From Planctomycetota bacterium (GTDB taxonomy: Bacteria > Planctomycetota > UBA1135 > JACQFD01): a stretch of 64,000 nt of DNA. Shown here piece by piece: positions 1-42,348 of the stretch; position 1 is the first letter of the stretch; the number at the start of each line of letters is the position of its first letter. The stretch is from NCBI GenBank assembly GCA_016792805.1, contig JAEUHX010000076.1, forward strand, positions 29,541 to 93,540, in the 5' to 3' direction. The notes beneath the pieces were generated by a model, which worked only from the letters and a program-made list of their open reading frames with translations, ran no database searches and was not told where the DNA came from. A program made the position numbers and the translations under genes.

Positions 1-132
1 CTCGCCTGCGAGGGCGACTTTCGGCAGTGTCGTCGCCATGGCGACGGCGCCGACGCTGTGGATTCCGACGCCTTGGAGGAAGCGGCGCCGCGAAAGCGGC
101 TGCGGCTCCTTGGATTCGTCCTGGGATTTCAT
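1..132 (-). CDS. 5' end of a Tat-exported protein; the gene runs off the left edge
   Basis: The reverse strand from CAT 130-132 reads MKSQDESKEPQPLSRRRFLQGVGIHSVGAVAMATTLPKVALAGE. This has an S-R-R-x-F-L twin-arginine motif followed by a hydrophobic stretch. Only 44 codons lie in the window, so it is absent from the ORF track. Confidence 0.45.
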   Translation of the reverse strand, partial: MKSQDESKEPQPLSRRRFLQGVGIHSVGAVAMATTLPKVALAGE

Positions 133-309
133 GGGACGGCTCGGGGGCAGGGTATTGGCGGGCGGTGTAACGGTGCCGCATCGCGCATCCGATCGGGGGC
201 GCGATTGGGAGACGAGGATACGCCTGTGTACGCGGGGAGGCGAGCCGCTCATGAGCTTTGCTGGCGACACCTCTCCAACGTGGCTTGGTTCGTGGCAGAT
301 CAATCGGAT

Positions 310-333
310 GGAACCCGCACCACGCCGGGCGTC
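310..333 (+). promoter_or_regulatory. Candidate ECF-sigma-type promoter (GGAAC-N16-GTC)
   Basis: GGAAC lies at 310-314, followed by a 16-nt spacer and GTC at 331-333 (CGTC at 330-333). It is about 95 nt upstream of ATG 431. It sits in the divergent intergenic region between the Tat-signal gene and protease 1. Confidence 0.3.
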
Positions 334-430
334 CGTCTGCAGTAGGCTTCGATTCCAAGCTGCTTCCCCGCGCCCGCTCGTCCCCGACGCTCACTCGCTC
401 TCGCTTCTGGTGTCTTTCCCGGTGACAGGA

Positions 431-3372: not shown

Positions 3373-3411
3373 GGCATGAGCGCGGAGACCCCGCGCTCAT
3401 GCCATTTTCTC
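3373..3411 (+). terminator. Rho-independent terminator between the two protease paralogs
   Basis: A perfect 13-bp stem ggcatgagcgcgg/ccgcgctcatgcc (3373-3385 and 3391-3403) encloses the loop agacc and is followed by attttctc. The hairpin overlaps the ATG the ORF track used at 3376, which argues against that start. Confidence 0.7.
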
Positions 3412-3489
3412 GGGCGGTTCGTCGGGCTGCGGATGAAAGGGGTATCGTCGGACGCAGCTGACCCGATCGCGCCACTCTGGGCATTGCCC

Positions 3490-8094: not shown

Positions 8095-9582
8095 CTACAG
8101 AACTCTTACGCGAAGCGCCCGCGAACTGCTCAAATGGAACGGGCTTGGCATGCACAGACCCGCCGTTGGCCAGGCAGAGATCAGTTGAATGAAGAATGCC
8201 TGTCCGGAGAGTGCGGGCTGCGGCGGAATCCCCAAGCTCACGAATGCTGAGGCCTCCGAGTCAGCTCGCGCGTCCAACACCAGAATCTGTGAGGAAGCAC
8301 TCAGGTCGATGTGGAGGAGCACGCCGGCTCCGAAGAGGTCGGAGCCGGCCGCGTCGACGGCGTCGCCGACCAGCAGCAGCGCGAGGGATCGAAAAGGAAC
8401 ATTTGTGATTGTGATACCGAAGCTGTTGTTTCCAACTATCGGAATGGAACTCGCGGCGATCCCCTGGACTCCGAGACAGCCCGCCGTGCCAGAGCCGATG
8501 GGCACGGTTGCGGGCGCCGAAGGCGTCAAATTCTGCATCGCAACGACAGATTGTGGAGCCGGGACTGCTGCAGCGAGATCTATGGATCCGTCAGCGCTGA
8601 AGTCGATTGCGGCGAGGCCGACTCCGCTCGCAATCCCCGCGATCACCACAGGCGCGGCGAATCCCATCGCTCCATCGCCCGACGCGAAATACACACCGCC
8701 GGAATCGAGCCGCGTGAAGACGACATCCGGCTTCCCGTCGCGCTGAAGGTCACAAATGCGGACTGAGAAGCACTGGCCTCTGGAGAGAATCGGCACGGGG
8801 GGCCCAAGGCCGCCCGCTCCATCGCCCTTCAGAGCTGAAACCCCGCTGCCACCCGCGGCGACATCGAGATGGCCGTCGATGTCGAGATCACCAACTGCGG
8901 CGACGAACGCGGAAACGGGAATCGAGAAGGGCGCCGAAGCAAAAGTGCCCCCCGTGTTTCTGTGAATCACGAGCTTCGAGTTCGACGCGGCCACGATGTC
9001 CGGGAGCCCATCGTCCGTCATATCGGCGAGGAGCACGGAGAATTGTGCTGAGAAACCATACAGGTCGCCAACTGGCTGAAGTGATCCCGCCCCGTCTCCC
9101 TTCAAGAGTCCGACTCCAGTAAAAAAGTAACCTCCGACGGCATCGAGATCGCCGTCGCCGTCCCAATCTCCTGCGGCGACGGAGTTGACGTCGTCGATGA
9201 GAAACAAGTTTTGTGTATTCACATAGCTTCCGCTTCCGATGCCGAGCAGCACCTGGAGGTAGGGTCCGAACGCTGCGTTGGCAATCAGGATGTCGGAAAG
9301 CCCATCCTCATTCAGATCGCCCGCCGCGATGTCATAGGCGGCGCCTGTCGTGGCGCTGAACTGTTGTGTGCCGAATCCGCCGACGCCATCTCCGAGCAGC
9401 GCCACGACCCCGTGGGACGAGCCTTGCCTCGCGCTCGCCACAAGGTCGCCGAGGCCGTCGCCGCTGGCGTCGAGCGCCACAACCTTCGGGAACTCGACGG
9501 GAGCTGGAATCGCTTGGGCGCTGAACGGGGGGGATCCTTGAGCGAAGCTTGTCCAGAGGACCGCAAGCGTCATCGGATTCAT
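8095..9582 (-). CDS. Secreted FG-GAP/VCBS-repeat protein with the recurrent C-terminal domain
   Basis: I place the start at ATG 9582 (MNPMTLAVLWTSFAQG); the track start at 10077 is an Arg-rich extension that overlaps the sigma gene. Calcium-type loops repeat (DLNEDGLSDI, GDWDGDGDLD, DMTDDGLPDI, DLDIDGHLDV, DLQRDGKPDV, DFSADGSIDL). The tail is ...GIPPQPALSGQAFFIQLI.... Confidence 0.8.
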   Translation of the reverse strand: MNPMTLAVLWTSFAQGSPPFSAQAIPAPVEFPKVVALDASGDGLGDLVASARQGSSHGVVALLGDGVGGFGTQQFSATTGAAYDIAAGDLNEDGLSDILIANAAFGPYLQVLLGIGSGSYVNTQNLFLIDDVNSVAAGDWDGDGDLDAVGGYFFTGVGLLKGDGAGSLQPVGDLYGFSAQFSVLLADMTDDGLPDIVAASNSKLVIHRNTGGTFASAPFSIPVSAFVAAVGDLDIDGHLDVAAGGSGVSALKGDGAGGLGPPVPILSRGQCFSVRICDLQRDGKPDVVFTRLDSGGVYFASGDGAMGFAAPVVIAGIASGVGLAAIDFSADGSIDLAAAVPAPQSVVAMQNLTPSAPATVPIGSGTAGCLGVQGIAASSIPIVGNNSFGITITNVPFRSLALLLVGDAVDAAGSDLFGAGVLLHIDLSASSQILVLDARADSEASAFVSLGIPPQPALSGQAFFIQLISAWPTAGLCMPSPFHLSSSRALRVRVL

Positions 9583-9718
9583 TCCAGCGAGGCTACCCAC
9601 AGCTCCGGAGCGCACGGGCGAAAAACCTGTCGCAGAGCCCGCGCGGGAGTTCGTACTAGCCGCATGTGCGCGCCCTGGCTCTGCGAATCGAGGCTCCCGT
9701 CCGCCTCCCGGCGGCGTG

Positions 9719-9743
9719 GGAACGCGTCGGCCGGGTGCTCGTT
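9719..9743 (+). promoter_or_regulatory. Candidate autoregulated ECF-type promoter (GGAAC-N17-GTT)
   Basis: GGAAC lies at 9719-9723, followed by a 17-nt spacer and GTT at 9741-9743 (CGTT at 9740-9743). It is about 120 nt upstream of the sigma start at 9864. Confidence 0.3.
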
Positions 9744-9863
9744 TCGCCAGCCGTGACACCGACGTCGCGCCCCGCCGGAGGGAAGTCTCGCAAGCTCCTC
9801 GCGCCTCGGTCGGACAGAATTGGCGCACCGGTGAACCGAACGCCCCAGCAGCCGCTTGGGAGC

Positions 9864-10511
9864 ATGACTCCCGAGGAGACCGCCATGGTGCGCGCCGCCA
9901 TGAAGGGCGACGCCGCGGCGTTCGAGCGGATCGTCCGCCAGTACCAGGAGCCCGTGTTGGCAGCGATCTATCGGCTGCTCGGCCCGCGCTCCGTCGAGGA
10001 CGCCGAAGACGCCGCCCAGGAGGTCTTCGCCAAGCTCGCGAGGGCGATTTCCACATTTGATTTCGCACGGCGCACACGATTCTCGACTTGGCTCTTTACA
10101 TTTGTTCGGAATCACTGTTTTGACGTGATGCGCCGACGGCGGGCGCCCATGCTGCCACTCGGCCGTCGCGGCGACCCCGACGAGGCCGAATCGCTGCCGG
10201 CGAGTGACGAGCCGCCGCCTGCGCGAAGTCTCCAATCCTCCGAGGCGCGGCGATTATTGGCCCACGCCATCGCCCAGCTTCCGGAGCCTGAGCGCGAAGT
10301 ATTTGTCAGGCGCGAGATCCAGGGGCTCTCGATTCTCGAGATCGCCAGCGAGATGGACACGCCCGCACCGACGATTCGAAGTCGGTTGCACCGCGCGAAG
10401 CTTGAGCTGCGGGCCAAGCTCGAGCCCTACCTCCGCGACGGCTCTGCGCCCTTCCTCCGTCCGCAGGCGGCGCACCCGGAGCCGCCCCCCGTACAATCCC
10501 ATTCCGCGTAG
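9864..10511 (+). CDS. ECF (sigma-70 family) RNA polymerase sigma factor
   Basis: Region 2 is present (DAEDAAQEVFAKL...FSTWLFTFVRNHCFDVMRRRR), as is region 4 (LPEPEREVFVRREIQGLSILEIASEMDTPAPTIRSRLHRAKLELR). I place the start at ATG 9864 (MTPEETAMVRAAMKGD). Confidence 0.9.
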   Translation: MTPEETAMVRAAMKGDAAAFERIVRQYQEPVLAAIYRLLGPRSVEDAEDAAQEVFAKLARAISTFDFARRTRFSTWLFTFVRNHCFDVMRRRRAPMLPLGRRGDPDEAESLPASDEPPPARSLQSSEARRLLAHAIAQLPEPEREVFVRREIQGLSILEIASEMDTPAPTIRSRLHRAKLELRAKLEPYLRDGSAPFLRPQAAHPEPPPVQSHSA

Positions 10512-10523
10512 CAAACAAATAAA

Positions 10524-11054
10524 GTGACAATTTCCAGGCAGAACCCAGATCCGGCGCAGGAGTGCGCCAGGCTTCGTCCGTTGCTCCCGGCGATTCTCGA
10601 CGCCGAGGACCCCGACATTTCCACAGTCCGCGCCCACGTCGCGGATTGTGTAGAGTGTGCACAGATCGCCGCAGATCTCGTGCGGCTCGAGGCGTGGGTC
10701 TCGGCAGACCGTGCGCCCGCACCTTCGACTCATTTCGCCTCTGCGACGGCGGCGCGCATGGTTCGCGAGCTGGAGTCCTCGCGCCGGCCGAGAAGGCTCC
10801 TTCTGCCGCTGACGTCGCTTGCGGCGGTTCTGCTTCTCGGCATCGGAACTGTGATATGGCAATCGTCGGGGCCTGAGACGGTGAATGCTCCCATGCGGGC
10901 CGGCGATCGCATGAAGCTTGAGCGCGCTCTGCGCAGATCCGGTCGTTTCTTTACATCGGCGGCGACGGCCGATCTGGCGCTTCCATTTGTGCCTACGGAC
11001 TCGCTTGCCGAAGTTCACCGATGGCAGGCAGCGGCGAGAAGGGCGAGCCGGTAA
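10524..11054 (+). CDS. Anti-sigma factor (zf-HC2 type), single-pass membrane protein
   Basis: HVADCVEC matches the H-x3-C-x2-C motif. There is one TM helix (LLLPLTSLAAVLLLGIGTVIW). It lies 12 nt after the sigma gene, and its TAA overlaps the next ATG (TAATG at 11052-11056). Confidence 0.8.
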   Translation: MTISRQNPDPAQECARLRPLLPAILDAEDPDISTVRAHVADCVECAQIAADLVRLEAWVSADRAPAPSTHFASATAARMVRELESSRRPRRLLLPLTSLAAVLLLGIGTVIWQSSGPETVNAPMRAGDRMKLERALRRSGRFFTSAATADLALPFVPTDSLAEVHRWQAAARRASR

Positions 11055-12604
11055 TGGGTGTCCTGACGGCAGGCATCCTCTGGGTGCTCGCGGCCACCGC
11101 TTTCGGCGGCGTTCACGAGCCCATCGCTCCGCTGCTGCCGGCGCCGCTGCCAAGCGGGGTGCGCAGCCAGGGACCGCTCTCCAAACCGGCGTCGAGCCCG
11201 GCTGTCGACGTTCCCGCGGACATTCTTGCAAAGATCACCGATCTCGACCGCGCGCTTGTCGCCGATGACCGAAAGGCGCTGCTGGCTCTCTCTGCCGGAG
11301 CTCCCTGCAATGATTCGTTGTGCTGGCTTCGAAGAGCGGAAGCGCTTCTCGAGTGGTTCGACGTCACGGAGCAGCGCACGGAGCCGCACCATGTCGCGAC
11401 GATTGGCGATGCTACTGCCGTTTATGTGAAAGTTTACCAATCGCGACGATGCCGCGGCGGCAAGAACTCCGCTGAAGAGACTGCCGTGGAGCCGCGCGTG
11501 CTGATGTTCCGCCGCACGCAGCAGGGGCTTGTGCTCGTACGTGTGGAGTCGTGGTCCGGCGGACATCTGAAGTGGATCTCCGGGGAGAGAATCGCCTGCT
11601 CGCCCTGCGGGTGGCAAATGAAGCGCCCCGAAGGCTGGTTCGTCGTTCCCCATACGGCGGCGGCCGGGGGCGCCTTCGACTCCGTTTCTTTTGTGCATTC
11701 GGATCTGTCGGTTTCCCTCGACGTAGATTGTCTGGTGGTTCCCAAGACGGAATCCCCGCTCGAGACGGCGACGCGCGACGAGGAGATGGCCGCCAGCGCG
11801 GAAGGCGCAAGCCATGCGGCGGCGGTGAAGCAGATTCGCCGAGAGGAGTCCGTCGAGAAGCTTACAGGCGCATCGGTCGATGGGCTTCGCGCAACACTCA
11901 TCTCCGACGTCGCGACTCAGGAGGGCGGGTCCGCTCGTCACTGGCGGGTCTACCGAGCCTTTCCTCCGTTCCTTTTTGTGCAAGTGGCCCACGGCCCCTC
12001 GAAGGACGTGGCGCAGCTTGAGCCGCAGATTCAGCTTCTTCTCGATTCTCTGGCATTGGACGGGCGGATCGTCGGCAGCCGAGATCAGGCGTTGAAGGTG
12101 GCTTCAGCCCATATGAGGGATTCCGAAGTAGGGAACGGCGAGCTGCGCTGCAAGTCACAGAAATTTGCGGTGAACGTTCCTGAGGGGTGGCACGCGCTGC
12201 CGCGCCCGGGAGTCGGCCGGTTTTGTTGGACTTTCCAGCACCCCGATCATGCCGATGTCTCGATCACGATCGTGGCTCGCGAAACGGAGGGCGCGGACTG
12301 GACGGAACCCGATGTGCGATCGTTTCTCGATGCCCGACGCGAGTCGATCGCCGCGTGGGCCAAGGCTGAGCCGAAGGTTCTCCGCGACACCAGGCGGAAG
12401 CACGAGAAGTCGGGAGAGCTTCTGTACGAAGTGGAGTCGGAGTGGAAGGAAGGCGGCACCGCGGGCGTGGTGCGCGAGCGCATCCACCTGATTCCCGTTG
12501 GCTCCATGTTGCTCTGTATTGTGATTCGCGCGCCTCAGGCGAAATTCTCGGCGCACGTTGAGACTCTGGAGCGGATCGTCGCGTCCTACCATAGAAACAA
12601 ATAG
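11054..12604 (+). CDS. Secreted hypothetical protein with two PsbP/DcrB-like modules (tentative)
   Basis: The signal peptide is MGVLTAGILWVLAATAFGG. Two blocks follow the 'P-E-G-W + beta strands' pattern (MKRPEGWFVVPH..., VNVPEGWHALPR...). It is translationally coupled to the anti-sigma gene. Confidence 0.6.
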   Translation: MGVLTAGILWVLAATAFGGVHEPIAPLLPAPLPSGVRSQGPLSKPASSPAVDVPADILAKITDLDRALVADDRKALLALSAGAPCNDSLCWLRRAEALLEWFDVTEQRTEPHHVATIGDATAVYVKVYQSRRCRGGKNSAEETAVEPRVLMFRRTQQGLVLVRVESWSGGHLKWISGERIACSPCGWQMKRPEGWFVVPHTAAAGGAFDSVSFVHSDLSVSLDVDCLVVPKTESPLETATRDEEMAASAEGASHAAAVKQIRREESVEKLTGASVDGLRATLISDVATQEGGSARHWRVYRAFPPFLFVQVAHGPSKDVAQLEPQIQLLLDSLALDGRIVGSRDQALKVASAHMRDSEVGNGELRCKSQKFAVNVPEGWHALPRPGVGRFCWTFQHPDHADVSITIVARETEGADWTEPDVRSFLDARRESIAAWAKAEPKVLRDTRRKHEKSGELLYEVESEWKEGGTAGVVRERIHLIPVGSMLLCIVIRAPQAKFSAHVETLERIVASYHRNK

Positions 12605-12663: not shown

Positions 12664-15600
12664 GTGCGTACCTATTCTCTGACCTCGGCGGCGCTTTCTC
12701 TCACACTTCTGTCTGCATGCGCTTCGCGGGAGGCACCGGCCAGCTCTGGGCCCGCAGCCGCGCGAACTGAGACCGCGGCGCGGGCGAGCGGCTTCACTCG
12801 CACCTCCACCAGCGAAGAAGTGTTGTCCTTTCTGAGGGATCTCGCGAAGCAATCCTCCAGGGTACACATCGGTGAGATCGGCAGGTCTTCCGAGGGCCGC
12901 GAGATTCCGCTTGTGGTACTTGCGGACCCGCCCGTGGCCGCAGCGGAGGACGCAAAGAGGAGCGGCAAGCTCATCGTGGCCCTGCTCGGGAACATCCATG
13001 GCGGAGAGGTGGATGGAAAGGAGGCTCTCCTCGAGCTGACTCAAAGCCTCGCGAATGCCGCGACGGGAGACATTCTCAAGAATGTGATTCTATGTGTGAT
13101 TCCAAATTATAACCCCGATGGCAATGACCGGTTTTCGGCGCAGAACCGGCGGGAGCAGGGCGGACCCCATCCCGTCGGTGCCCGGGAGAACGCCGCCGGC
13201 CTGGATCTAAATCGCGACTTCGTCAAGGCGGAGGCCCCGGAGACGCGGGCGCTTCTGCGATTTCTCCGTACTTGGGATCCCGCCGTTCTTGTCGATGCGC
13301 ACACAACCAACGGATCCCTGCACCGAAACCTCATTACCTATGCCGGTCCGAAGCACCCGGCGGGAGATCGTCGCGTTATTCAGTTTGTGCGCGAGCGGAT
13401 GCTCCCCGGTCTCCAAAGCACCATGGCCTCCGTCCACGGGATCTCCACCGGTCCCTACGGGTTCTTCTCCAATGGGCGGACTCAGTGGGTCACGTTTCCC
13501 GACGAGCCCCGATTCGGAACCAATTATGTCGGGCTTCGCAATCGAATCTCGATCCTCTGCGAATCGTACAGCTATGCGAGCTTTGAAGATCGCGTGCGAG
13601 GTTCGCGGGCGTTCCTGCAGGAATGTGTGAATTTCGCAGGCGCGCACGCTGCGGAGATCAGAGGCCTCGTCGCTGAGGCCGATGCTACGACGGCAGGCGC
13701 GGCGAGCGCTGGCGGCTCCGTGGCGCTTCGAACCGTGGTGCGCCCCTTCGAGCCGAAGATTACGATTCCGGGGTTTCGGGAAGGCGACGGTCCCGACCGG
13801 GGCGAGCCGCGCGATCTCGAAGTCTCCTTCGTCGATGACTTTGTGCCGGTGAAGTCGTCGGTATTGCCCCGGGCGTATCTATTGCCGTCGGACTCGAAAG
13901 CCGCAGTGGAACTCCTGCAGCGCCACGGCATCCCTGTTGAGATTCTTCGGGAAGATTTGGATCTCACCATCGAACGCTCGATCGTTGAGAAGTGCGTTCA
14001 GTCGGCGCAGGAGTTCCAGAAGCACAAGCTGCTTCAGCTGGAGACTTCCCGGAAGGCCGAGGTGCGCCTTGCCCGAGCGGGGTCCTTTGTGGTGCGCACG
14101 GGCCACTCCCTCGGAGTGCTCGCGAGCTATCTCCTCGAGCCCGAGTCGGAGGACGGGCTCCATGCATGGGGACTCCTCGGAGAGCGATTCGAAGCCGGTA
14201 CGGATCTCCCCATATGGAGAGTGCCGAATGCAACAGCCATGCTCACGACGGCCTATCGGCCTCTCGAGGAGGACCGCACTCTGCGAAAGCGGATCACCTT
14301 CGAGCTTCTGTATGAGAGGCCCGATCCTCCGCAGTTCCAGGGCGGTGCACACGGAATCGAAGGCTGGTGCGAAGACGGCGAGCACTTCTTACAGAGAAAG
14401 GAAGGGCGGATGTGGAAAGTGAATGCTGCAAGCGGCGCCGCCGAACTCTTCGGAGGCGATGCCGCGGAGATGGCGCGCGCGCTGGAGAAAGTTTCGCCGG
14501 CAGCGGCAAAGGCGCTGCGCGACTCGGGCGGAGCAACTGCTGTGTGGAGCAGCTCTCGCGAAGCTGTTTTCTTCGACTACGCAAACGATCTGTATTACTG
14601 CCGCACCGACGGGAAGGGGGCAGCGCGGCTCACTCAGACGCCCGACGCGGAGGAGGAGGTCGCGAGCTTCAGCCCCGATGGGAAGCTCATCGCCTTCGTC
14701 CGGGCAAATAATCTATTTGTTGTAGACGTTCTGACGCAGAAGGAGAAATCGCTCACGACGGGCGGACATGACCGGCTCCGGTTCGGGAAGGCCGACTGGG
14801 TCTACTTCGAGGAGCTCTTCAACCGCAGCTGGAAGGCCTATTGGTGGAGTCCGGATTCGAAGCGTCTCGCGTGGCTTCGCTCCGACTCGGCGGATGTTCC
14901 CACGTATACGCTCGTGAATGACGTGGGGCCGAAGCTCGAACTCCAGGCGGTCGCCTACCCTCGCGTCGGAGAGCCCAACCCCGTCGTCGACGTTCAGGTC
15001 GGAGATGTGGATTCCGGCGCCGTACGGACGCTCGATCTCTTGCCGTACCCGGCGAAGGATCGGCTCGTCACAGCCGTCGGCTGGTGGCACGACGGAGCTG
15101 CGTTGTTCACTTGCGTTCAGAATCGCGAGCAGACATGGCTCGATTTCATGGCGTTCGGCGCGGATCAGACCGCCGGAACGAAGCTGCTCCGCGATTCGAC
15201 GCAAGCCTGGATCGAATCGCCTCAGGTGAAGTTCCTGGAGGACGGCAGCTTCCTGCTGAGCAGTGAACGCACAGGCTGGCAGCATCTATACCGTTACTCG
15301 CGCGATGGCATCCTGCGCCACGCCGTGACGAGCGGGGAGTGGGAGGTTCAGTCGATCGAGCGAGTCGACGAGAAGGGAGGATTTGTGTATTTCGTCGGCA
15401 CGAAGGACGACCCTCTCGCGCCCAATCTGTATCGAGCCCGCCTCGACGGCTCCGGCGTCGAGCGGCTCACCCAGGAAGCCGGCGCGCACACGATCCGATT
15501 CAGCCCCCGCGGGCCCTGGATCATGGACACGGTCTCGCGGCGAGACGCGACTCCGCGCACGGTGCTTCTCTCTCTCGACGGCACTCCCGTCCGCACTCTC

Positions 15601-16401
15601 GACGCCAATCCCGTTTATGTGCTCGAAGAGTATGAGTTCGGAACTGAGCGATCGATTGAGATTCCGTGCTCCGACGGCGGCGTGATTCCCGCCACGCTCC
15701 TACTTCCCGCCGATTTCGATCCGACGCGGAAGTACCCCGTCTGGTTCAAGACCTACGGCGGCCCCCATGCGCCGACGATCGCGCAGCGATGGGACGCGGC
15801 TCGTCCGCTCGAGGAGGCACTGGTCAACAGCGGCATTTTGGTGTTTCGCGCAGATCCGCGGAGCGCGAGCGGACGCGGCGCAGTGTCCGCATGGAGATGC
15901 TATAAAAAGCTTGGCGTCTCCGAACTCGCCGATGTCGAGATCGCCATCCGATGGCTCATCGCGCATCACCCCTTCGTGGATGCGAGCCGCATTGGTATGG
16001 AAGGCCACAGCTTCGGCGGCTTCCTTACCGCCTATGCGCTCACCCATAGTGATCTTTTCGCCGCAGGCATCGCCGGTGCTCCCGTCACCGACTGGCGGCT
16101 TTACGATTCGATTTATACCGAGCGTTATATGCTGACTCCACAGACCAACGCGCAGGGGTATGAATCTACTTCTGTTCTCTCCGCCGCAAAGCAGCTCCGA
16201 GGCAGACTTCTCCTCCTGCATGGACTGCTCGACGACAACGTACATCCGCAGAACTCCACGCAACTGATCCAGGCACTTCAGACGGCCGGGAAGCAGTTCG
16301 AGTTCATGGCCTATCCGCAGGCTCGGCATGGCATTCGCGGGAAGCACTACCAGCGGCTCAAGTGGGATTTTATCCAGCGTTCGCTGCGCGCTGCGGGCTA
16401 G
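12664..16401 (+). CDS. Lipoprotein fusion: M14 zinc carboxypeptidase domain plus DPP-IV-type S9 serine peptidase (beta-propeller and alpha/beta hydrolase)
   Basis: The lipobox is LTLLSA-C after a GTG start. M14 motifs are NIHGGEVDG (His codon 12997-12999, Glu codon 13006-13008), NPDGNDRF and DAHTTNG. The S9 triad context is GHSFGG (Ser codon 16009-16011), LLHGLLDDNVH and YPQARHGI. There is no stop or frame change between the halves. Confidence 0.85.
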   Translation: MRTYSLTSAALSLTLLSACASREAPASSGPAAARTETAARASGFTRTSTSEEVLSFLRDLAKQSSRVHIGEIGRSSEGREIPLVVLADPPVAAAEDAKRSGKLIVALLGNIHGGEVDGKEALLELTQSLANAATGDILKNVILCVIPNYNPDGNDRFSAQNRREQGGPHPVGARENAAGLDLNRDFVKAEAPETRALLRFLRTWDPAVLVDAHTTNGSLHRNLITYAGPKHPAGDRRVIQFVRERMLPGLQSTMASVHGISTGPYGFFSNGRTQWVTFPDEPRFGTNYVGLRNRISILCESYSYASFEDRVRGSRAFLQECVNFAGAHAAEIRGLVAEADATTAGAASAGGSVALRTVVRPFEPKITIPGFREGDGPDRGEPRDLEVSFVDDFVPVKSSVLPRAYLLPSDSKAAVELLQRHGIPVEILREDLDLTIERSIVEKCVQSAQEFQKHKLLQLETSRKAEVRLARAGSFVVRTGHSLGVLASYLLEPESEDGLHAWGLLGERFEAGTDLPIWRVPNATAMLTTAYRPLEEDRTLRKRITFELLYERPDPPQFQGGAHGIEGWCEDGEHFLQRKEGRMWKVNAASGAAELFGGDAAEMARALEKVSPAAAKALRDSGGATAVWSSSREAVFFDYANDLYYCRTDGKGAARLTQTPDAEEEVASFSPDGKLIAFVRANNLFVVDVLTQKEKSLTTGGHDRLRFGKADWVYFEELFNRSWKAYWWSPDSKRLAWLRSDSADVPTYTLVNDVGPKLELQAVAYPRVGEPNPVVDVQVGDVDSGAVRTLDLLPYPAKDRLVTAVGWWHDGAALFTCVQNREQTWLDFMAFGADQTAGTKLLRDSTQAWIESPQVKFLEDGSFLLSSERTGWQHLYRYSRDGILRHAVTSGEWEVQSIERVDEKGGFVYFVGTKDDPLAPNLYRARLDGSGVERLTQEAGAHTIRFSPRGPWIMDTVSRRDATPRTVLLSLDGTPVRTLDANPVYVLEEYEFGTERSIEIPCSDGGVIPATLLLPADFDPTRKYPVWFKTYGGPHAPTIAQRWDAARPLEEALVNSGILVFRADPRSASGRGAVSAWRCYKKLGVSELADVEIAIRWLIAHHPFVDASRIGMEGHSFGGFLTAYALTHSDLFAAGIAGAPVTDWRLYDSIYTERYMLTPQTNAQGYESTSVLSAAKQLRGRLLLLHGLLDDNVHPQNSTQLIQALQTAGKQFEFMAYPQARHGIRGKHYQRLKWDFIQRSLRAAG

Positions 16402-16567
16402 CTGCCAAGCCCTTTCGCGTTCCGGCAGGCGAGCGTACGATCGAGGGCGCGTCGAGCCGCTTCGGACGAGTCAAGGCGTCGTCCCCTGTGATCCCTCGAG
16501 GCTCGGCGTCTCGCGGCGCGAGGCCTTTTCTCGCTCCCGAGCCCGTTCTCATGCCTCCACCCCGAGC

Positions 16568-18817
16568 ATGCGCATCGCCGCTCTCGGCGGCTTCGCCGCC
16601 GCGTTCTTTTGTTTCGTTGCACCGGCATCGGCACAACTGCTTTCAGTGTCCACCGATGTCCCAAAGGCGATCCCCGACAATAACCCGGCTGGGATCCAGT
16701 CGTCTCTGACGGTCGGCGCGCCCGGCGCCTTCATCGGCGCGATCTACGTCGAAGTAGACATCACGCACACTTATCAGGGAGATCTTGGAGTTCAACTCGT
16801 GCACCCCGACGGGACGGTGGTTGCGCTGCACTCCAACACCGGCGGAAGCGCGGACAACGTGCAAGAGGTGTTCAAGGTGACCTCTCTGTCGGGGAAGCCC
16901 GCCTCCGGTGCTTGGACGCTTCGTGTGCAGGACACTGCCAACATTGACATCGGCACGCTCAACGCATGGTCCCTTGCATTTGTCGGTTCGGTTACCGAGG
17001 TCTCATCGACCGACGTGCCGAAGTCGATACCTGACAATAATCCGACGGGAGCGACGTCGCTCACGACGATCAATCTCCCCGCGCAGCAGCTTGCTGCCGT
17101 CTACTGCCGAGTCGATATCACCCATACCTACATCGGCGATCTTAATATTACGCTCACCCATCCGGGAGGCCCTGTCGCGAGTCTGTGGGCCAATCAGGGT
17201 GGGGGTGTGGACAATCTGCACAAGATTTTCGACGTAACGTCGCAATTCGGCGCGCTGAGTGCGAACGGAACGTGGTCGCTCTCTGTGATCGACAGCGCAA
17301 ACATCGACATCGGAACGATCGACAACTGGACGCTGATTTTCCTCTACTCGGCGACGGTCGAACTCGGTCCGCCGCAATATGTGAGCGTCGGTGACGGGCC
17401 CACCTCGGTGGCCGCAGGCGATATCAATCATGACGGTCTCCTCGACCTCGTGACGGCTAACACGATCAGCAACACCGTGTCGGTGTCTTTCCAGGGGCCG
17501 GCTGGCGTCTTCGCCGCGGGCGGCGCCGGAGTTCCCGTCGGTGCGTCGCCGCGCTCGGCGCTGACGGCCGATTTCACCTCCGACACGTTCGGCGAAATTG
17601 TGGTCGTCTCCTCCGATGCCCACAGTGCCACCGTGCTGCAATCGGTGGGTCCGTTCTTTCTTCCGACGACGGTGCTGCTCGGAGCGGGCACAGCGCCCTT
17701 CGATGTCGTGGCGGCGGACTTCAATCTCGACGGGAACCTTGATTTCGCATCCGCCAACAAGAATACGGGCACAATCACACGAGTCTTCGGCGGCGGCGCC
17801 GCCCATACCTATTCGCCGCAGCCGCAGATCGGTGCCGGCGGCTCGGGCACGGTCGATCTCTCCGTCGGAGACCTGAACCTCGACGGCGCGCCCGACCTCG
17901 TGGCCGCGAATTTCTCGGGCGTGTCGATCGGCGCGTTGCTGAACTCGGGCACAGGCGCGTTTGCTCCTGCAGTTTCTGTGAGCACTTCCACTCCGGGGCC
18001 GAGCAGCGTAGAGGCTGCCGACATGAATGGAGACTCGCTGCTGGATCTCGTGACAATGAATGGAGGCATTCCGACCATTCATTTCGGAGCAGGCGCGACG
18101 GCCTTCGGCCCGGCGACCACAGTTCCAACCACGGCGAGCGGATTCAAGTGTGGTGCCGTCGATCTCAATGGCGACGGCTACCTTGATATGCCCATCGTCG
18201 ATCCGCTTGGCACAGTAAACGTGCTTATGGGCGTCGGCGGCGCGGTGTTCACTTCGGGCACCCAGATCCTGACTGGCGGGCTGGTCTCGGACGTGCTCGC
18301 CGCGGACCTCAACAGCGATGGGTTCATTGATATCGCTCTGGCGCAGCCGATGGGCGGTGGCAACGATCGCGTTTCAATTGCGCTTAATCAAACTGTTGCA
18401 ACCCGCGTGGGCGATTTCGGCACCGGCTCGTTCGGCTGCGGAGGCATGCTGGGCTTCGGCAGCAATTCCATCCCGGCAGTGGGAAACGGCGCCCTGAAAT
18501 TCGTGGCAACGAACGCTCCTGCGAACTCCCTCGGCGTCTGTATCATCACGGACGCTGCGGATATCCCCGGCAGCGACCAGCTTTTCTTGAACTTGCTGCT
18601 GCACGTCAATCTGTTTGCTTCGACGTCGATCTACGCGTTTGACATGCCGAGCGATCGCAACGGCACGGCAATCGTTCCGGTGCCGCTGCCGAGCGATCCG
18701 CTGCTCATCAACGCGCTGTTCTTTGGGCAGGCGATCTTCGTGGAGCCCGCCGCCTGCAGCGGCGCGCTTGTTGGATTGGTGAGCACGCGCGGCGGATCGA
18801 TTGTGATCCAGCCGTAG
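16568..18817 (+). CDS. Secreted protein with two proprotein-convertase P domains, FG-GAP repeats and the recurrent C-terminal domain
   Basis: The signal peptide MRIAALGGFAAAFFCFVAPASAQ starts at ATG 16568. Two P-domain blocks are present (VDITHTYQGDLGVQLVHPDGTVVAL; VDITHTYIGDLNITLTHPGGPVASL). FG-GAP loops include GDINHDGLLDL, DFNLDGNLDF, DLNLDGAPDL, DMNGDSLLDL, DLNGDGYLDM and DLNSDGFIDI. The tail is ...VPLPSDPLLINALFFGQAIF.... Confidence 0.85.
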   Translation: MRIAALGGFAAAFFCFVAPASAQLLSVSTDVPKAIPDNNPAGIQSSLTVGAPGAFIGAIYVEVDITHTYQGDLGVQLVHPDGTVVALHSNTGGSADNVQEVFKVTSLSGKPASGAWTLRVQDTANIDIGTLNAWSLAFVGSVTEVSSTDVPKSIPDNNPTGATSLTTINLPAQQLAAVYCRVDITHTYIGDLNITLTHPGGPVASLWANQGGGVDNLHKIFDVTSQFGALSANGTWSLSVIDSANIDIGTIDNWTLIFLYSATVELGPPQYVSVGDGPTSVAAGDINHDGLLDLVTANTISNTVSVSFQGPAGVFAAGGAGVPVGASPRSALTADFTSDTFGEIVVVSSDAHSATVLQSVGPFFLPTTVLLGAGTAPFDVVAADFNLDGNLDFASANKNTGTITRVFGGGAAHTYSPQPQIGAGGSGTVDLSVGDLNLDGAPDLVAANFSGVSIGALLNSGTGAFAPAVSVSTSTPGPSSVEAADMNGDSLLDLVTMNGGIPTIHFGAGATAFGPATTVPTTASGFKCGAVDLNGDGYLDMPIVDPLGTVNVLMGVGGAVFTSGTQILTGGLVSDVLAADLNSDGFIDIALAQPMGGGNDRVSIALNQTVATRVGDFGTGSFGCGGMLGFGSNSIPAVGNGALKFVATNAPANSLGVCIITDAADIPGSDQLFLNLLLHVNLFASTSIYAFDMPSDRNGTAIVPVPLPSDPLLINALFFGQAIFVEPAACSGALVGLVSTRGGSIVIQP

Positions 18818-18908: not shown

Positions 18909-19823
18909 CTACCCGAGGCCCTGCCCGAGCCCCGAAGGCGCGCGGCGCTTGCCGACAAAAAGCGCCAGCACCGCCAAAGAGAGAACATAGGGAAGCGCGC
19001 GAAACGCCTCTGGCGCCACGTTCCAGCCTGCGGCCGCAAAGCCGTACTGTGCCGCGAGGGCGCCGCCGAAGAGCAGGGCCGCAGAGCCCACCCACCCGGG
19101 CCGGTGATTTCCAAAGATCACCAATGCCAATGCTAAGAAACCGCGGCCGGCCGTCATTCCTTCTACGAAAGTCCGAGTGTCGGCAATCGAGAGGCATGCG
19201 CCGCCTGCGCCCGCGAGTGCCCCACAAATTCCGAGCGCGCGCGCTCGGACGGAGATCGTAGCAATTCCGAGCGACGCCGCCGCGAGCGGTGACTCGCCGG
19301 CAGCACGCCAACGAAGCCCTGCTGACGTGCGGAAAAGGAAGATCCCCGCAGCCGGAACGACCAGGATCAGCGCATATGTGATCGCGTGGTGTTGGAAGAG
19401 TACAGTCCCGAGGAAAGGAATCTCACTCAGCAGCGGAACCGTCAGCGGCTCAAGGCCGGGAGCCCGCACATCGCCTCCAGCCCGGGAGAGCGCTGCCCGC
19501 CAGGCGACCGCGGTCCCGCCCGCAGCCAGCAGGTTCATCGCGGTCCCGGCAATCACATCGTCGGCTCGAAGCTTGAGAGTCAAGAATGCGAATAGAAGCG
19601 CGAAAATTGACCCTGCGGCGATACCACAGAAAACTCCCACAGCAGCCGAGCCCGAAGCGTGGGCGCCAAGCACCGCGCCGAGGGCGCCGACCAGCATGGC
19701 TCCCTCGAGCCCGAGAAAGAGAACGCCGGTCGACTCCACAATGGTCTCCCCGACGGCGGCAAGCGCGATCGGCGTCGCCAGCGCCACCGCCAAGTGCGCG
19801 GGCTGCTCGAGCGGGAGGCTCAT
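18909..19823 (-). CDS. ABC transporter permease (BMP/nucleoside-sugar type)
   Basis: The product is polytopic and hydrophobic. An ATGA start/stop overlap with the upstream permease lies at 19820-19823. It is the last gene of a binding protein-ATPase-permease-permease operon. Confidence 0.8.
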   Translation of the reverse strand: MSLPLEQPAHLAVALATPIALAAVGETIVESTGVLFLGLEGAMLVGALGAVLGAHASGSAAVGVFCGIAAGSIFALLFAFLTLKLRADDVIAGTAMNLLAAGGTAVAWRAALSRAGGDVRAPGLEPLTVPLLSEIPFLGTVLFQHHAITYALILVVPAAGIFLFRTSAGLRWRAAGESPLAAASLGIATISVRARALGICGALAGAGGACLSIADTRTFVEGMTAGRGFLALALVIFGNHRPGWVGSAALLFGGALAAQYGFAAAGWNVAPEAFRALPYVLSLAVLALFVGKRRAPSGLGQGLG

Positions 19824-20881
19824 GCGGGCTCCTCCGCGGCACTCTCTGCCGTGGCGCCGCTGCGGCTCGCGCGCTTGGCCGCGAAGTCAGCCGCCAGCAA
19901 GCCCATGAGCGCTGTGGCTTCAATGACCTGCGCCACCGCGGCAGAGACGCCCGCGGAGCGCTGCATCTCCGCCGCCGAGGACTCCAGTGCGCCGAAGACG
20001 ATCGCCGCGGCCACGATTCCGAGGGGATGGAGGCGCCCGAGTAGCGCCACGGCGATCGCAACATATCCGATTCCCCCCGAGAGATCGCCGTAGAGCCTTC
20101 CCGTGAGGCCTGCAACTTCGACGCCTCCCGCCGTGCCCGCAAGGGCGCCCGACATCGACGTGGCGAAGAAGGCTACTTTTGCCGGCTCGAACCCCGCGAA
20201 CCGAGCGGCTTGGACCCCGAGCCCGACCGCGCGCAGCCGCAGCCCGAGCGCCGTTCGGAAAAGTAATAGATAGCAGCACCCCGCGGCCGCGAGGGCCAAC
20301 AGAAATCCTGCGTGAAGGCGCGTCGGAGGCGCGAGCTGCGGCAGCATGGCTTCGGCAGCAATGCGGTCGCTCTGAGGATAGGCGCGTGCGGCCTCCTGCA
20401 GCGGGCCGCGGACGAGCCAGGATGAAAGATTCAGCAATACGAAGTTCAACAAAATTGTCGAGAGGACCTCGGGCACTGAGCGTCGGTAGCGCAGCCACGC
20501 GGCCACGGACGCCGCGGCAGCGCCGCCGCAGGCGGCAGCCGCGAGCGTCGCCGCCGCTGCGATCGGAGCCGGGACGCCGCCCATGTGCAGTCCAACGGCG
20601 ACGGCTGCTGCAGCGCCCGCCATGATCTGACCCTCGGCGCCAATATTGAGGACTCCGGCGCGGAACCCGAGCGCCACCGCCAGCCCCGCGAGGAGCAGCG
20701 GAGTCGCTCGCGTCAGGGTTTCCCCGACTGCATATAGATCGCCGAAAGCGCCGCGCACGACGGCGGCGAGCACATCGCCGGGGTCGGCGCCAGCGGCAAA
20801 GAGCACAGAGGATCCCGCCGCCACAGCCGCCAGAAGAGCGGCGACAGCCGTCCATCCGGGCTGGAGTTGAGTGATCTTCAC
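19820..20881 (-). CDS. ABC transporter permease (BMP/nucleoside-sugar type)
   Basis: I place the start at GTG 20881 (VKITQLQPGWTAVAALLAAVAAG), which overlaps the ATPase TGA (GTGA). The track start at 21286 is an Arg-rich extension inside the ATPase gene. The product is polytopic. Confidence 0.8.
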   Translation of the reverse strand: MKITQLQPGWTAVAALLAAVAAGSSVLFAAGADPGDVLAAVVRGAFGDLYAVGETLTRATPLLLAGLAVALGFRAGVLNIGAEGQIMAGAAAAVAVGLHMGGVPAPIAAAATLAAAACGGAAAASVAAWLRYRRSVPEVLSTILLNFVLLNLSSWLVRGPLQEAARAYPQSDRIAAEAMLPQLAPPTRLHAGFLLALAAAGCCYLLLFRTALGLRLRAVGLGVQAARFAGFEPAKVAFFATSMSGALAGTAGGVEVAGLTGRLYGDLSGGIGYVAIAVALLGRLHPLGIVAAAIVFGALESSAAEMQRSAGVSAAVAQVIEATALMGLLAADFAAKRASRSGATAESAAEEPA

Positions 20882-22347
20882 TCGAACTCTCCGCCCGCCA
20901 TGGCGGTGCCGATGGCCGCGATCGCCCTTTCGTCGAGGGGAGCCTCGAACGGGCCGCGGGCCTTCCCTCGGCTCAGCACGAAGACCCGGTGGGCAAGGGC
21001 CGCAATTTCGTCCAAGTCGGGCGACACGAGGACGACGCCACCGCCGTTGCCGGCGAATTGTAGGATCTCCCGATGGACCGATGCCGCAGCGTCGACGTCG
21101 AGCCCGCGCGTCGGGTTCGCTGCGATGAGCACCGAGGGCTGCCTTGCGAGGGCGCGCGCGATCACGATTTTTTGTTGGTTCCCGCCGGAAAGCTCCCGCG
21201 CAGCTGCGTCGGGCCCGGGGGCTCGGATCGCGAATCTTGAGATCGCCGCAGCCGCCGCATCGCGGAGGGCGCTCGGGGGAAGCCATCCGCGCGGTGCAGC
21301 CCTGTCGAGAAGGATGCGGTCGAGGTGGAGATTCTCACCCATCGAGAAGCCGGCCAGTAGCCCTTCGGCGCGCCGGTCGGGAGGAATGGCGGCTACCCCA
21401 TGCGTGCGATCGCATCGAACGGAGCCCGCGAAGCTGCGCAGGCCTACGAGGGCCTCCACGAGCTCCTGCTGTCCGTTGCCGTCAACGCCACAGAAGCCGA
21501 CGATCTCGCCGCTGCAGACATGAAATGTCATGGAGTCGAGTGGCACCCCGGCGCCCTCCCGGGCCGTGGTGAGCTGTTGCACCTCCAACAGCACCTTTCG
21601 TTGGGCAGGTGCCGGTGGGCGCTTTGGTGACTCGACGGCGTGGCCAACCATGGCGCGGGAGAGCTCGGCTGGATCGGCACCTTCTGTGATGAGTTCCTTG
21701 ACGAGCCGGCCACGGCGCAGCACGGCCACGCGTGTGCACGCTTCGATCACCTCGTGGAGCTTGTGATCAACAAGCACCACGGCGACTCCCGACTCGCGCA
21801 GCCGGCGCACAACCGCCAGCAAATCGCTCACTTCGGCAGGTGTCAGCACCGCCGTCGGCTCATCCAGAAGTAAGCATCGCGTGGGGCGGGAGAGAGCTTT
21901 CAGAATCTCGACCCGCTGGCGAGTGCCGACGCTCAATGATTCGCATGGCGCGTCGGGATCTCCGGGGTCGAGCCCAAGCTCCGCCGCCAAAGCGCAGACG
22001 CGCGCACGCATCTCTGCGCGCCGGGGAAAGGCCGGCAGCCCCGACGCCAACGCAACATTTTCCGCCACCGTGAATCGCCCGATCAGGGAGTCGTGCTGCG
22101 GGACCACTCGGATCCCGAGCGCGGCGGCGTCGCGCGGCTTGCGAATGTGTACGTTCTTCCCTTCCCACTCCAACGTGCCTCCGTCGGGCTGTACAGTTCC
22201 CGAGAGGATCCCGACGAGCGTCGACTTGCCGGCGCCGTTCTCGCCGATCAGCCCCAGCGACGTTCCCGCTTCGAGCGAGAAGGAGACGTCTGCCAGCGCG
22301 GCCCTTCCGTTGTAGGCCTTTCGGAGCGACTGTGCGCGAAGCAGCAT
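20878..22347 (-). CDS. ABC transporter ATP-binding protein with duplicated ATPase domains
   Basis: The Walker A motif is GENGAGKST. Signature motifs are LSVGTRQRVEILKAL and LSGGNQQKIVIARAL. Walker B motifs are LLLDEPT and LIAANPTRGLDV. Confidence 0.9.
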   Translation of the reverse strand: MLLRAQSLRKAYNGRAALADVSFSLEAGTSLGLIGENGAGKSTLVGILSGTVQPDGGTLEWEGKNVHIRKPRDAAALGIRVVPQHDSLIGRFTVAENVALASGLPAFPRRAEMRARVCALAAELGLDPGDPDAPCESLSVGTRQRVEILKALSRPTRCLLLDEPTAVLTPAEVSDLLAVVRRLRESGVAVVLVDHKLHEVIEACTRVAVLRRGRLVKELITEGADPAELSRAMVGHAVESPKRPPAPAQRKVLLEVQQLTTAREGAGVPLDSMTFHVCSGEIVGFCGVDGNGQQELVEALVGLRSFAGSVRCDRTHGVAAIPPDRRAEGLLAGFSMGENLHLDRILLDRAAPRGWLPPSALRDAAAAAISRFAIRAPGPDAAARELSGGNQQKIVIARALARQPSVLIAANPTRGLDVDAAASVHREILQFAGNGGGVVLVSPDLDEIAALAHRVFVLSRGKARGPFEAPLDERAIAAIGTAMAGGEFE

Positions 22348-22420
22348 CTCGTGGGTTCCGGGACGCGTCCGCAGCTTCTGCGCGGCCTGCTGCGGCGCCG
22401 GGGGTAGGGCTCAGCCGCTG

Positions 22421-23416
22421 CTATTGTGCGGAGTAAGGAATCTTCAAGGATCCGGATGCGATCTTCGAATCGAGCTCCTCGACCTGCTTCAGGACCTCCG
22501 CGGGAACCCTCGCCTTCATCGCCGGATTCCAAACAATTCCCACCATGCCTTCCTTGCGGGTCCATTCGATGCGGCGCCCGCGGAATCGCCCTTCCTGGAT
22601 CTCGCGGGCGATTTCCACAAAAGACTTGGGCACGTCGGTGACTGCGCTCGCGACGACGGCTTTGGGAGCCGAACTCGATTGATCTTTGGTGCAGCCGAAG
22701 GCGAAGACACCTTTCTGCTCCGCGGCCTCCAACATCCCGAGGCCGGCGGCGTCGGCGTCGTGGAAAAGAACGTCACAGCCGGCCTCGATGAGCGAGAGAG
22801 TTTGGGCGCGGGCGGCACCGATGTCGTGCCAGTTGCCAACGTAAACCTGGCGAACCTCAAAATTCGGGTTCCCGAGCTTGGCTCCCTGCTCGAATGCATT
22901 AAAAGCGCTTCGAACCGGCGGAATGTCTTCCCCGCCGACGCACCCGGCCTTCCCGGTCTTCGAGAGCGACGCAGCGATCCGGCCGCACAAATACGCGGCA
23001 TCCTCGACGCGCCAGACCATCGACGCAACGTTCTCGGAGTGCACGCCCGGCGCACCGGCGCTCACGAGGAATTTCGTTCCAGGAAACTCTTTGCCGACCT
23101 TCAGCGCCGCGTCGCCGAATTCGAATCCGTGGCCGAAGATGAGCGTGGCGCCCGCCCGAGCGTTGGATCGGTAGCCTTCCTCGAACTCCGACGGATTCTT
23201 GACCTGCTGCTGCGATTTCTTGGCGCCGAGTTCCTTCTCGATCCGCAGAAGCCCTTCATAGGCGCTCGCATTCCAGCCGTTGTCATTAACCGGTCCGGGG
23301 GAGAGCAGCGCCACGTGGAGCTTCGCGGGCGAGTTCGGCGACGAGCCACCGGAGCAGCTCGCCGCCAGCAGGAGCCCGATGCACGCAAGGAAGCGGAAGG
23401 GAGCCATGCGGCGCAT
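22421..23416 (-). CDS. BMP-family (PnrA/Med-like) ABC substrate-binding lipoprotein
   Basis: The lipoprotein signal is MRRMAPFRFLACIGLLLAAS-C. LLSPGPVNDNGWNASAYEGL is typical of Bmp/PnrA proteins. The start could be 23416 or 23407; the track start at 23515 is an extension. Confidence 0.8.
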   Translation of the reverse strand: MRRMAPFRFLACIGLLLAASCSGGSSPNSPAKLHVALLSPGPVNDNGWNASAYEGLLRIEKELGAKKSQQQVKNPSEFEEGYRSNARAGATLIFGHGFEFGDAALKVGKEFPGTKFLVSAGAPGVHSENVASMVWRVEDAAYLCGRIAASLSKTGKAGCVGGEDIPPVRSAFNAFEQGAKLGNPNFEVRQVYVGNWHDIGAARAQTLSLIEAGCDVLFHDADAAGLGMLEAAEQKGVFAFGCTKDQSSSAPKAVVASAVTDVPKSFVEIAREIQEGRFRGRRIEWTRKEGMVGIVWNPAMKARVPAEVLKQVEELDSKIASGSLKIPYSAQ

Positions 23417-23525
23417 GGTAGCGCGGAGTGGGGTGGTTCCCTCATCCTCGCCCGCACACGCCCTCGGAAGCGCCCGCAGAAGCGGCGCGACACGCGCCCT
23501 CCGTCCGTAGGTCACGCTGCGATCG

Positions 23526-42211: not shown

Positions 42212-42348
42212 CCACCCTCTGGACGGGAGCGCTCCGACGCAGCAGACTTTCCCCTTGCCAGATCGGCGATTCCCGTTGGAGACACCGGGGCGCCCTGGCA
42301 ATCCCCGACCGCCGGCTTTCTCCCGTCGGCAGCCCCCGAACACGAAGG

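Follow-up and report, generated by a model that had tools for sequence, protein, structure and literature searches.

The enzymes closest to the gene described here are known as two separate kinds of peptidase. The dipeptidyl peptidases IV (DPP4, or DPP-IV) of Stenotrophomonas maltophilia and Pseudoxanthomonas mexicana (SmDAP IV, structure 2ecf, and PmDAP IV, structures 5yp1-5yp4) are periplasmic proteins of ~720 amino acids (aa), in which a signal peptide alone stands before the β-propeller. The M14 metallocarboxypeptidases, such as carboxypeptidase D domain II (1qmu/1h8l), carboxypeptidases N, M and T, and the CCP-like structures (4b6z, 3k2k, 3l2n and 4a37), share the zinc motif HxxE...H, the NPDG and DLNR motifs and an α/β fold. 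Carboxypeptidase D (gp180), which carries three M14 domains in tandem on a single membrane-bound chain, is an earlier example of a membrane-tethered polypeptide that combines several exopeptidase units. The gene studied here, at 12664..16401 on the forward strand of a 64,000-nucleotide (nt) stretch of DNA from a Planctomycetota bacterium (GenBank assembly GCA_016792805.1, contig JAEUHX010000076.1, positions 29,541 to 93,540; 'the window' below), has all the M14 features just listed and goes a step further. Whereas carboxypeptidase D repeats one family, this gene pairs two mechanistically unrelated families directed at opposite peptide ends, with a ~500-aa M14 enzyme in the place where SmDAP IV and PmDAP IV have only their signal peptide. 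Judged from its sequence, the product is a single polypeptide that comprises a complete M14 carboxypeptidase and a complete DPP-IV, both with intact active sites.

The open reading frame (ORF) started with GTG and continued for 1245 codons plus the stop codon, with zero internal stops and a uniform GC content along the gene (0.60-0.64). The original prediction of one uninterrupted frame with two peptidase units was borne out. Every motif that it had quoted was located where it had been placed, on the M14 side (HGGE, aa 112-115; NPDGND, aa 150-155; DAHTTNG, aa 211-217) as well as on the S9 side (GHSFGG, aa 1114-1119; DDNVH, aa 1190-1194; RHG, aa 1221-1223). Three Pfam domains scored above their curated cut-offs: Peptidase_M14 (PF00246; aa 54-188, 72 bits), DPPIV_N (aa 661-961, 266 bits) and Peptidase_S9 (aa 1053-1236, 156 bits).

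The identical 1245-aa product was called on 6 contigs, of which the three shown came from separate sequencing runs (SRR12144677, SRR10547829 and SRR10555726). No frameshift was hidden at about 13.7-14.4 kb, where the original prediction had considered one, since the same uninterrupted protein was obtained from the three independent runs and from many full-length homologues. The anatomy of the gene was as follows; the boundary between the propeller and the hydrolase domain is approximate.

12664..16401 (including the stop), + strand: complete gene for the 1245-aa M14 carboxypeptidase/DPP4 pre-protein, from the frame, Pfam and independent assemblies
12664..12720, + strand: signal peptide and lipobox L16-S17-A18-C19 (aa 1-19), from the sequence
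12721..12798, + strand: low-complexity tether rich in Ala, Ser, Pro and Thr (aa 20-45), unconserved and gapped in the family alignment
12799..13701, + strand: M14 metallocarboxypeptidase catalytic domain (aa 46-346), from Pfam, alignments, Foldseek and residue invariance
13702..14232, + strand: β-rich C-terminal domain of the M14 module (aa 347-523), from the model, conserved patches and stand-alone relatives
14233..14283, + strand: inter-module connector (about aa 524-540, ~15-20 residues), from the ends and starts of stand-alone relatives
14284..15618, + strand: DPP4 N-terminal segment and eight-bladed β-propeller (about aa 541-985), from Pfam, the 5yp1 alignment and Foldseek
15619..16398, + strand: S9 α/β-hydrolase catalytic domain (about aa 986-1245), from Pfam, alignment to 5yp1 and 2ecf, and residue invariance

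When aa 46-1245 were modelled in AlphaFold2 from an 83-sequence input, the model contained no disordered segment and had a mean predicted local distance difference test score (pLDDT) of 92.3 and a predicted template modelling score (pTM) of 0.87. A separate AlphaFold2 model of aa 46-550 reached a pLDDT of 94.2 and a pTM of 0.93. The high pTM of the full model suggests a defined arrangement of the domains in the predicted structure. When this model was used as the query in Foldseek, no PDB chain covered both modules together.

The DPP4 module was readily assigned. The C-terminal ~705 aa of the fusion aligned end to end with SmDAP IV and PmDAP IV at about 32% identity in Foldseek, and the full model matched 5yp1 over about 725 columns with a target template modelling (TM) score of 0.89-0.90 and a root-mean-square deviation of 2.8-3.0 Å. 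At the sequence level, aa ~613-1242 aligned to PmDAP IV (5yp1) with E=2e-102, far beyond chance, and the same region to the S. maltophilia enzyme (2ecf) with E=2e-98. A PF26549 entry in the precomputed lists proved to be Tricorn_N, a propeller-type hit beside DPPIV_N, and was not counted as an extra domain.

The roles of the PmDAP IV residues (triad, double-Glu, S1 pocket and Arg106) were taken from PMC5807507, and invariance was counted over 83 aligned fused homologues. S1116 (in GHSFGG), D1190 and H1222 corresponded to the triad Ser613, Asp689 and His721, and E716-E717 to the double-Glu Glu208-Glu209 on propeller blade 4, which anchors the substrate N-terminus; all five were invariant. The S1 proline pocket formed by Val639, Trp642, Tyr645, Tyr649 and Val692 was conserved as V1141, W1144, Y1147, Y1151 and V1193. 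N1192 and D1148, the counterparts of Asn691 and Asp646, were invariant or nearly so, and the oxyanion Tyr1031 was placed in the S9 domain by alignment to 5yp1 and 2ecf. The long insertion between blades 1 and 2 was also present. On the other hand, the position of PmDAP IV Asn614 was occupied here by F1117, which also counts among the S1 pocket residues, and by Tyr in most homologues, and in this respect the fusion family is like the human enzyme and unlike PmDAP IV. K616 aligned to Arg106 of PmDAP IV (Arg125 of human DPP4), but in a low-confidence stretch, and the blade 1-blade 2 insertion contained no invariant basic residue. On these alignments, the conservation of the double-Glu favours a dipeptidyl specificity.

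For the M14 module, H112-G-G-E115 aligned to the HGNE of carboxypeptidases D, N and M, which is H69/E72 in carboxypeptidase A numbering. R162 (in QNR162) and N183-R184 (in DLN183-R184-DF) aligned to R127 and N144-R145, matching the NR and DLNR motifs of the same three enzymes. H213 was aligned, through a weak second segment, to the third zinc ligand H196, which in carboxypeptidase N is the His within 'ANLH'. From these alignments, H112, E115 and H213 are the predicted zinc ligands, and R162, N183 and R184 the predicted carboxylate-binding residues. All six, together with E300, were invariant in the 83 fused proteins (83/83) and in 19 stand-alone relatives. At both catalytic sites named in the original prediction, all mappable catalytic and substrate-binding residues were invariant in each of the 83 homologues.

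The Pfam M14 match spanned only positions 2-135 of the 286 in the profile. Mapping of residues in the second half was tried with the single sequence, with an N-half profile and with a profile enriched in stand-alone relatives, and all three stopped at or before the third zinc ligand. Foldseek, in contrast, aligned 300-345 columns with whole M14 domains (carboxypeptidases D, T, A and B and bacterial CCP-like structures) with E about 1e-14, a target TM of 0.5-0.67 and 13-21% identity. Because whole domains were aligned in spite of the half-domain sequence profiles, the M14 fold, as modelled, is complete but divergent.

Several features set the module apart from characterised M14 carboxypeptidases. 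Its sequence similarity to them ends after the third zinc ligand, with the low identity given above, and it has no pro-domain. Unlike the CCPs, it lacks an N-terminal β-sandwich, and its β-rich C-terminal domain is ~180 aa long, compared with the ~80-aa transthyretin-like domain of M14B.

E300 was located in the model on the β-strand ahead of the C-terminal helices, matching the site of Glu270 in carboxypeptidase A. We propose, from its invariance and the predicted topology, that E300 is the general base equivalent to Glu270. On the same two grounds, the invariant Y265 is possibly the equivalent of Tyr248. Four invariant basic residues, K188, H220, R283 and R310, lay near the active-site segments.

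The region between the M14 catalytic domain and the propeller had been taken for a linker of about 200 aa. This did not hold. The region folds as a conserved β-domain and is part of the M14 module, and the true connector is confined to about aa 524-540. Pfam searches with the region alone gave nothing significant. In the model it consisted of long β-strands with pLDDT mostly >90, and its sequence contained two conserved motifs, LQRHGI..E.LRED and LLEP.SEDGL..W.

When 1.84 billion representative proteins were searched exhaustively with aa 46-540 as the query, 628 clusters were returned at E≤1e-30. Among the best 150 of these 628, 98 were stand-alone proteins (median 542 aa) whose ends lay about 5 residues past the module, 32 were the DPP4 fusion, either whole or cut by a contig end, and about 20 had other extensions. 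Most of the best relatives of the first 500 aa were thus stand-alone M14 proteins of ~540 aa, and the β-domain is therefore assigned to the M14 part, as the C-terminal domain of a pre-existing two-domain stand-alone M14 family. Members of this family, which occurs in Planctomycetota and other bacteria (for example MCH8808201.1, which is P0271 in our set, P0122 and P0125), covered ORF aa ~47-521 with 37-49% identity. They had the same catalytic domain, β-domain and invariant residues, stopped about 5 residues past the β-domain and lacked DPP4. The family is large and uncharacterised; one relative is named 'M14 family metallopeptidase [Planctomycetota bacterium]' at NCBI.

The ends of the stand-alone proteins defined the junction. 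Stand-alone M14 relatives ended at about model residue 476-481 (ORF aa 521-526), and the alignment of stand-alone DPP4s from Acidobacteriota started at model residue 493-497 (ORF aa 538-542). Since the supposed linker is the M14 β-domain and the real connector is only ~15-20 residues long, the gene joins, head to tail, two complete secreted exopeptidases that also exist separately.

Other arrangements of the same modules were encountered. The M14 plus β-domain module was found C-terminal to Sortilin-Vps10 repeats (P0203, 1267 aa), to DUF885 (P0263, 1033 aa) and to an unassigned 390-aa region (P0173, 880 aa), and it appears to fuse readily with varied partners. Three proteins of ~2000 aa (P0002, P0003 and P0004) had the order S9B - M14/β-domain - DPP4, with an extra DPPIV_N plus Peptidase_S9 unit at the N-terminal side, and P0227 was a fragment across the first S9-M14 junction of this triple-module type. 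In two metagenome-assembled genomes (MAGs) of Pirellulales (L029:5571-8258 and L036:5680-8547), proteins of ~900 aa had the second half of the β-domain (profile ~345-495) followed by DPP4, with no M14 catalytic domain and no upstream M14 remnant of ≥100 aa. These forms may reflect a secondary loss of the carboxypeptidase, or a sub-domain that packs against DPP4. At three further MAG loci (L013, L038 and L027), the fusion gene was broken over two or three frames, which may reflect either assembly errors or pseudogenes.

The fusion itself was widespread. In a search of 5.8 billion proteins, 721 matches at E≤1e-10 were found among 8000 candidates scored. The best 120 of the 721 covered 95-100% of the query at 46-51% identity (87% in one case) with the same domain set, and all were 1209-1344 aa long save three of about 2000 aa. 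A one-genome-per-species scan gave at least 598 relatives. Full-length copies occurred in Phycisphaerae, Gemmataceae (including Gemmata sp. IIL30), Isosphaeraceae, Pirellulaceae, Lacipirellulaceae, Planctomycetaceae, Mariniblastus and Verrucomicrobiota. The fusion is therefore no one-off but a large family that is common in Planctomycetota and found also in some Verrucomicrobiota.

Annotation pipelines name these proteins only 'dipeptidyl-peptidase 4' or 'DPP IV N-terminal domain-containing protein'. Full-text and targeted literature searches, which took in reviews on microbial S9B enzymes and on the domain architectures of S9 peptidases, turned up no account of an M14-S9B fusion. The original prediction, which did not know of this combination as a described architecture, agrees with these searches; the architecture is not rare, however, with hundreds of database entries. 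Common in public data yet undescribed in the literature found, the protein is real and conserved and is probably a bifunctional exopeptidase.

The mean pairwise identity in the family was 58.6% for the M14 catalytic domain, 58.5% for DPP4 and 50.8% for the β-domain, and the pairwise divergences of the modules were strongly correlated (r=0.80-0.84), with r=0.84 between M14 and DPP4. Because M14 and DPP4 are equally conserved and diverge in parallel, the sequences fit a single ancient fusion in which purifying selection acts on both halves. The pattern argues against an M14 part that is decaying or purely structural.

The N-terminus began with a positive n-region, M/V-R-T-Y-S, followed by the hydrophobic LTSAALSLTLL and then L-S-A-C19, which fits the lipobox [LVI][ASTVI][GAS]C, so that the mature protein is predicted to start with a lipidated Cys19. 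In P0001, the homologue with 87% identity, LTAC stood at the same place. Among 121 family sequences, a lipobox-like motif was present in 24, and most had ordinary cleavable signal peptides. From this distribution, export would be a trait of the family, and lipid anchoring a trait of a subgroup. The original description of a lipoprotein thus suits the present copy, with its LSAC, but does not extend to the family.

Taken together, we consider it likely that the protein is a secreted, probably lipid-anchored two-enzyme exopeptidase, in which the N-terminal M14 and the C-terminal DPP4 modules jointly trim oligopeptides. The name 'dual-end exopeptidase' is a reasonable inference from residue conservation. 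The analysis shows the architecture, the folds, the distribution and the intact, invariant active-site residues; from these and the lipobox we infer that both enzymes act, which substrates they prefer, that Cys19 is lipidated and that the sites may cooperate. After export, the signal peptide would be removed at the lipobox and Cys19 lipidated, so that the enzyme would be held on the membrane, facing the periplasm, by a flexible tether of ~25 residues. In the DPP4 module, E716/E717 would fix the free N-terminus of an oligopeptide, and S1116/D1190/H1222 would release Xaa-Pro (or Xaa-Ala) dipeptides. In the M14 module, R162/N183/R184 would bind the free C-terminal carboxylate, and the zinc site H112/E115/H213 with E300 would remove C-terminal residues. 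Both modules together would convert oligopeptides, including proline-containing peptides that resist ordinary aminopeptidases, to importable amino acids and dipeptides.

Several observations weigh against this interpretation. The E300 and Tyr248 assignments are based on invariance and predicted topology, as the Pfam model and all the profiles match no more than the first half of M14. An equivalent of Arg106 was not identifiable in the DPP4 module by alignment or by family invariance. The lipobox is missing from most homologues (24/121 have one). When all ORFs of ≥150 aa at 33 fusion loci were clustered, no neighbour such as a transporter or a prolidase, which would have favoured a nutritional role, was conserved, and none occurred at more than 6 of the 33 loci; the larger clusters consisted of antisense or off-frame ORFs within the gene. 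The stand-alone DPP4 genes of Acidobacteriota had no adjacent M14 gene, and therefore gave no independent sign of functional coupling.

The alternative that survives best, which we regard as plausible though not the likelier outcome, is that both modules are active yet independent. The fusion would then secure co-export, co-localisation and a 1:1 stoichiometry, with neither two-ended attack nor channelling. The existence of both modules as complete stand-alone proteins is in keeping with it, as is the lack of a conserved operon partner. The fusion of the M14 module to Sortilin-Vps10 and DUF885, and the triple S9-M14-S9 versions, likewise point to opportunistic concatenation. On the other hand, a pTM of 0.87 for a multi-domain model of 1200 residues suggests that the domains are packed in a fixed way and are not beads on a string, and the fusion has been kept across the whole phylum with correlated divergence of its modules.

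A stronger form of joint action is also conceivable, although we think it unlikely. The modules would be rigidly packed via the β-domain, so that one oligopeptide would be trimmed at both ends at once or handed between the sites. The M14 module would represent a subfamily with its own specificity, possibly a preference for acidic C-termini (K188, H220, R283 and R310), and would act as a 'plug-in' partner for secreted hydrolases (a second S9B unit, DUF885 or Sortilin-Vps10).

It is quite improbable that the M14 module is a pseudo-peptidase that serves DPP4 as a substrate-binding, regulatory or folding domain. The truncated Pfam match, with a second half too divergent to align, could be read in this way, and the two Pirellulales relatives with part of the β-domain and DPP4 indicate that DPP4 can dispense with M14. 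However, pseudo-enzymes normally lose catalytic residues, and here the zinc ligands, the R127/N144/R145 equivalents and E300 were invariant in 83/83 fused proteins and in the stand-alone relatives. A complete catalytic fold was predicted, and M14 is as conserved as DPP4.

Equally improbable is another S9B specificity for the S9 module, for example that of a prolyl tripeptidyl peptidase like PTP-A of P. gingivalis. The structures 2d5l and 2z3w were indeed strong matches (E about 1e-82, target TM 0.88). The DPP4s scored higher, however (2e-102 for 5yp1), the double-Glu aligned exactly at the invariant E716/E717, and the S1 pocket residues were those of PmDAP IV.

Finally, frameshift-interrupted MAG copies (L013, L038 and L027) show that errors or pseudogenes occur in the family, but the idea that the long ORF is an artefact of two neighbouring genes joined by a sequencing or assembly error can be set aside, being ruled out by the identical uninterrupted gene in three independent runs, by >120 full-length homologues in many assemblies (including contigs of 8.7 Mb and 4.8 Mb), by the conserved junction and by the confident single-chain model.

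If both halves of the two-enzyme exopeptidase are active, the family would represent a natural, phylum-wide combination of aminodipeptidase and carboxypeptidase in one exported chain, and a simple model for whether such a fusion speeds the complete breakdown of proline-containing oligopeptides. This bears on the scavenging of protein-derived nitrogen by Planctomycetota and Verrucomicrobiota in soils and waters. By the 'Rosetta-stone' logic, the fusion ties the uncharacterised M14 family to peptide catabolism. Labels that mention only DPP-IV hide the carboxypeptidase half, and also the large stand-alone M14 family, in functional profiles. Knowledge of either enzyme family is not overturned. Each of the two modules is an ordinary member of a well-known peptidase clan.

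The genes and sites around the peptidase gene in the window were as follows.

8095-10077, - strand: large FG-GAP/VCBS-repeat protein, on the other flank of the locus
9885-10511, + strand: extracytoplasmic function (ECF) sigma factor, upstream of the peptidase gene
10581-11054, + strand: 157-aa ORF with no Pfam family, upstream
11054-12604, + strand: 516-aa ORF with no Pfam family, ending 60 nt before the peptidase gene
16508..16534, + strand: terminator-like GC hairpin (16508-16524) and T-rich tail, a consensus match only
16568-18817, + strand: 749-aa FG-GAP protein with two proprotein-convertase P-domains, downstream
18909-23515, - strand: ABC transporter operon with two BPD_transp_2 permeases, a duplicated-domain ATPase and a Bmp/PnrA-like binding protein
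28443-30005, - strand: L-glutamate γ-semialdehyde (1-pyrroline-5-carboxylate) dehydrogenase of proline catabolism, 12 kb from the peptidase gene

The terminator-like hairpin lay 107 nt past the stop codon, before the next gene at 16568. Such sites were not enriched in the region (11 found, compared with 7.3 ± 3.4 in shuffles), and a promoter scan gave nothing useful. The ECF sigma factor and the two ORFs that follow it (9885-12604, +) may form a sigma/anti-sigma unit, which was not conserved beside the fusion elsewhere. No recognisable protease domain was found in the FG-GAP/P-domain protein at 16568-18817. Binding proteins of the Bmp/PnrA type usually take nucleosides or similar ligands, not peptides. 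A functional link between the peptidase and the 1-pyrroline-5-carboxylate dehydrogenase is speculative, given how far apart they lie and that genes on both strands separate them. The dehydrogenase was 76-78% identical to proteins of Planctomycetota MAGs, with the next group of relatives at about 65%, and the window is from an uncultured planctomycete.

Farther out in the window, three long ORFs of 1101, 989 and 644 aa (38-3343, +; 3376-6345, +; 34608-36542, -) had no Pfam match at E≤1e-5 and are candidate genes. CarboxypepD_reg-like β-sandwich domains were present in three proteins (30067-31797, 32868-34574 and 42106-45582 (+)), and the 1158-aa CarboxypepD_reg-like protein also contained a sigma-70 region 4 segment, an unusual combination.

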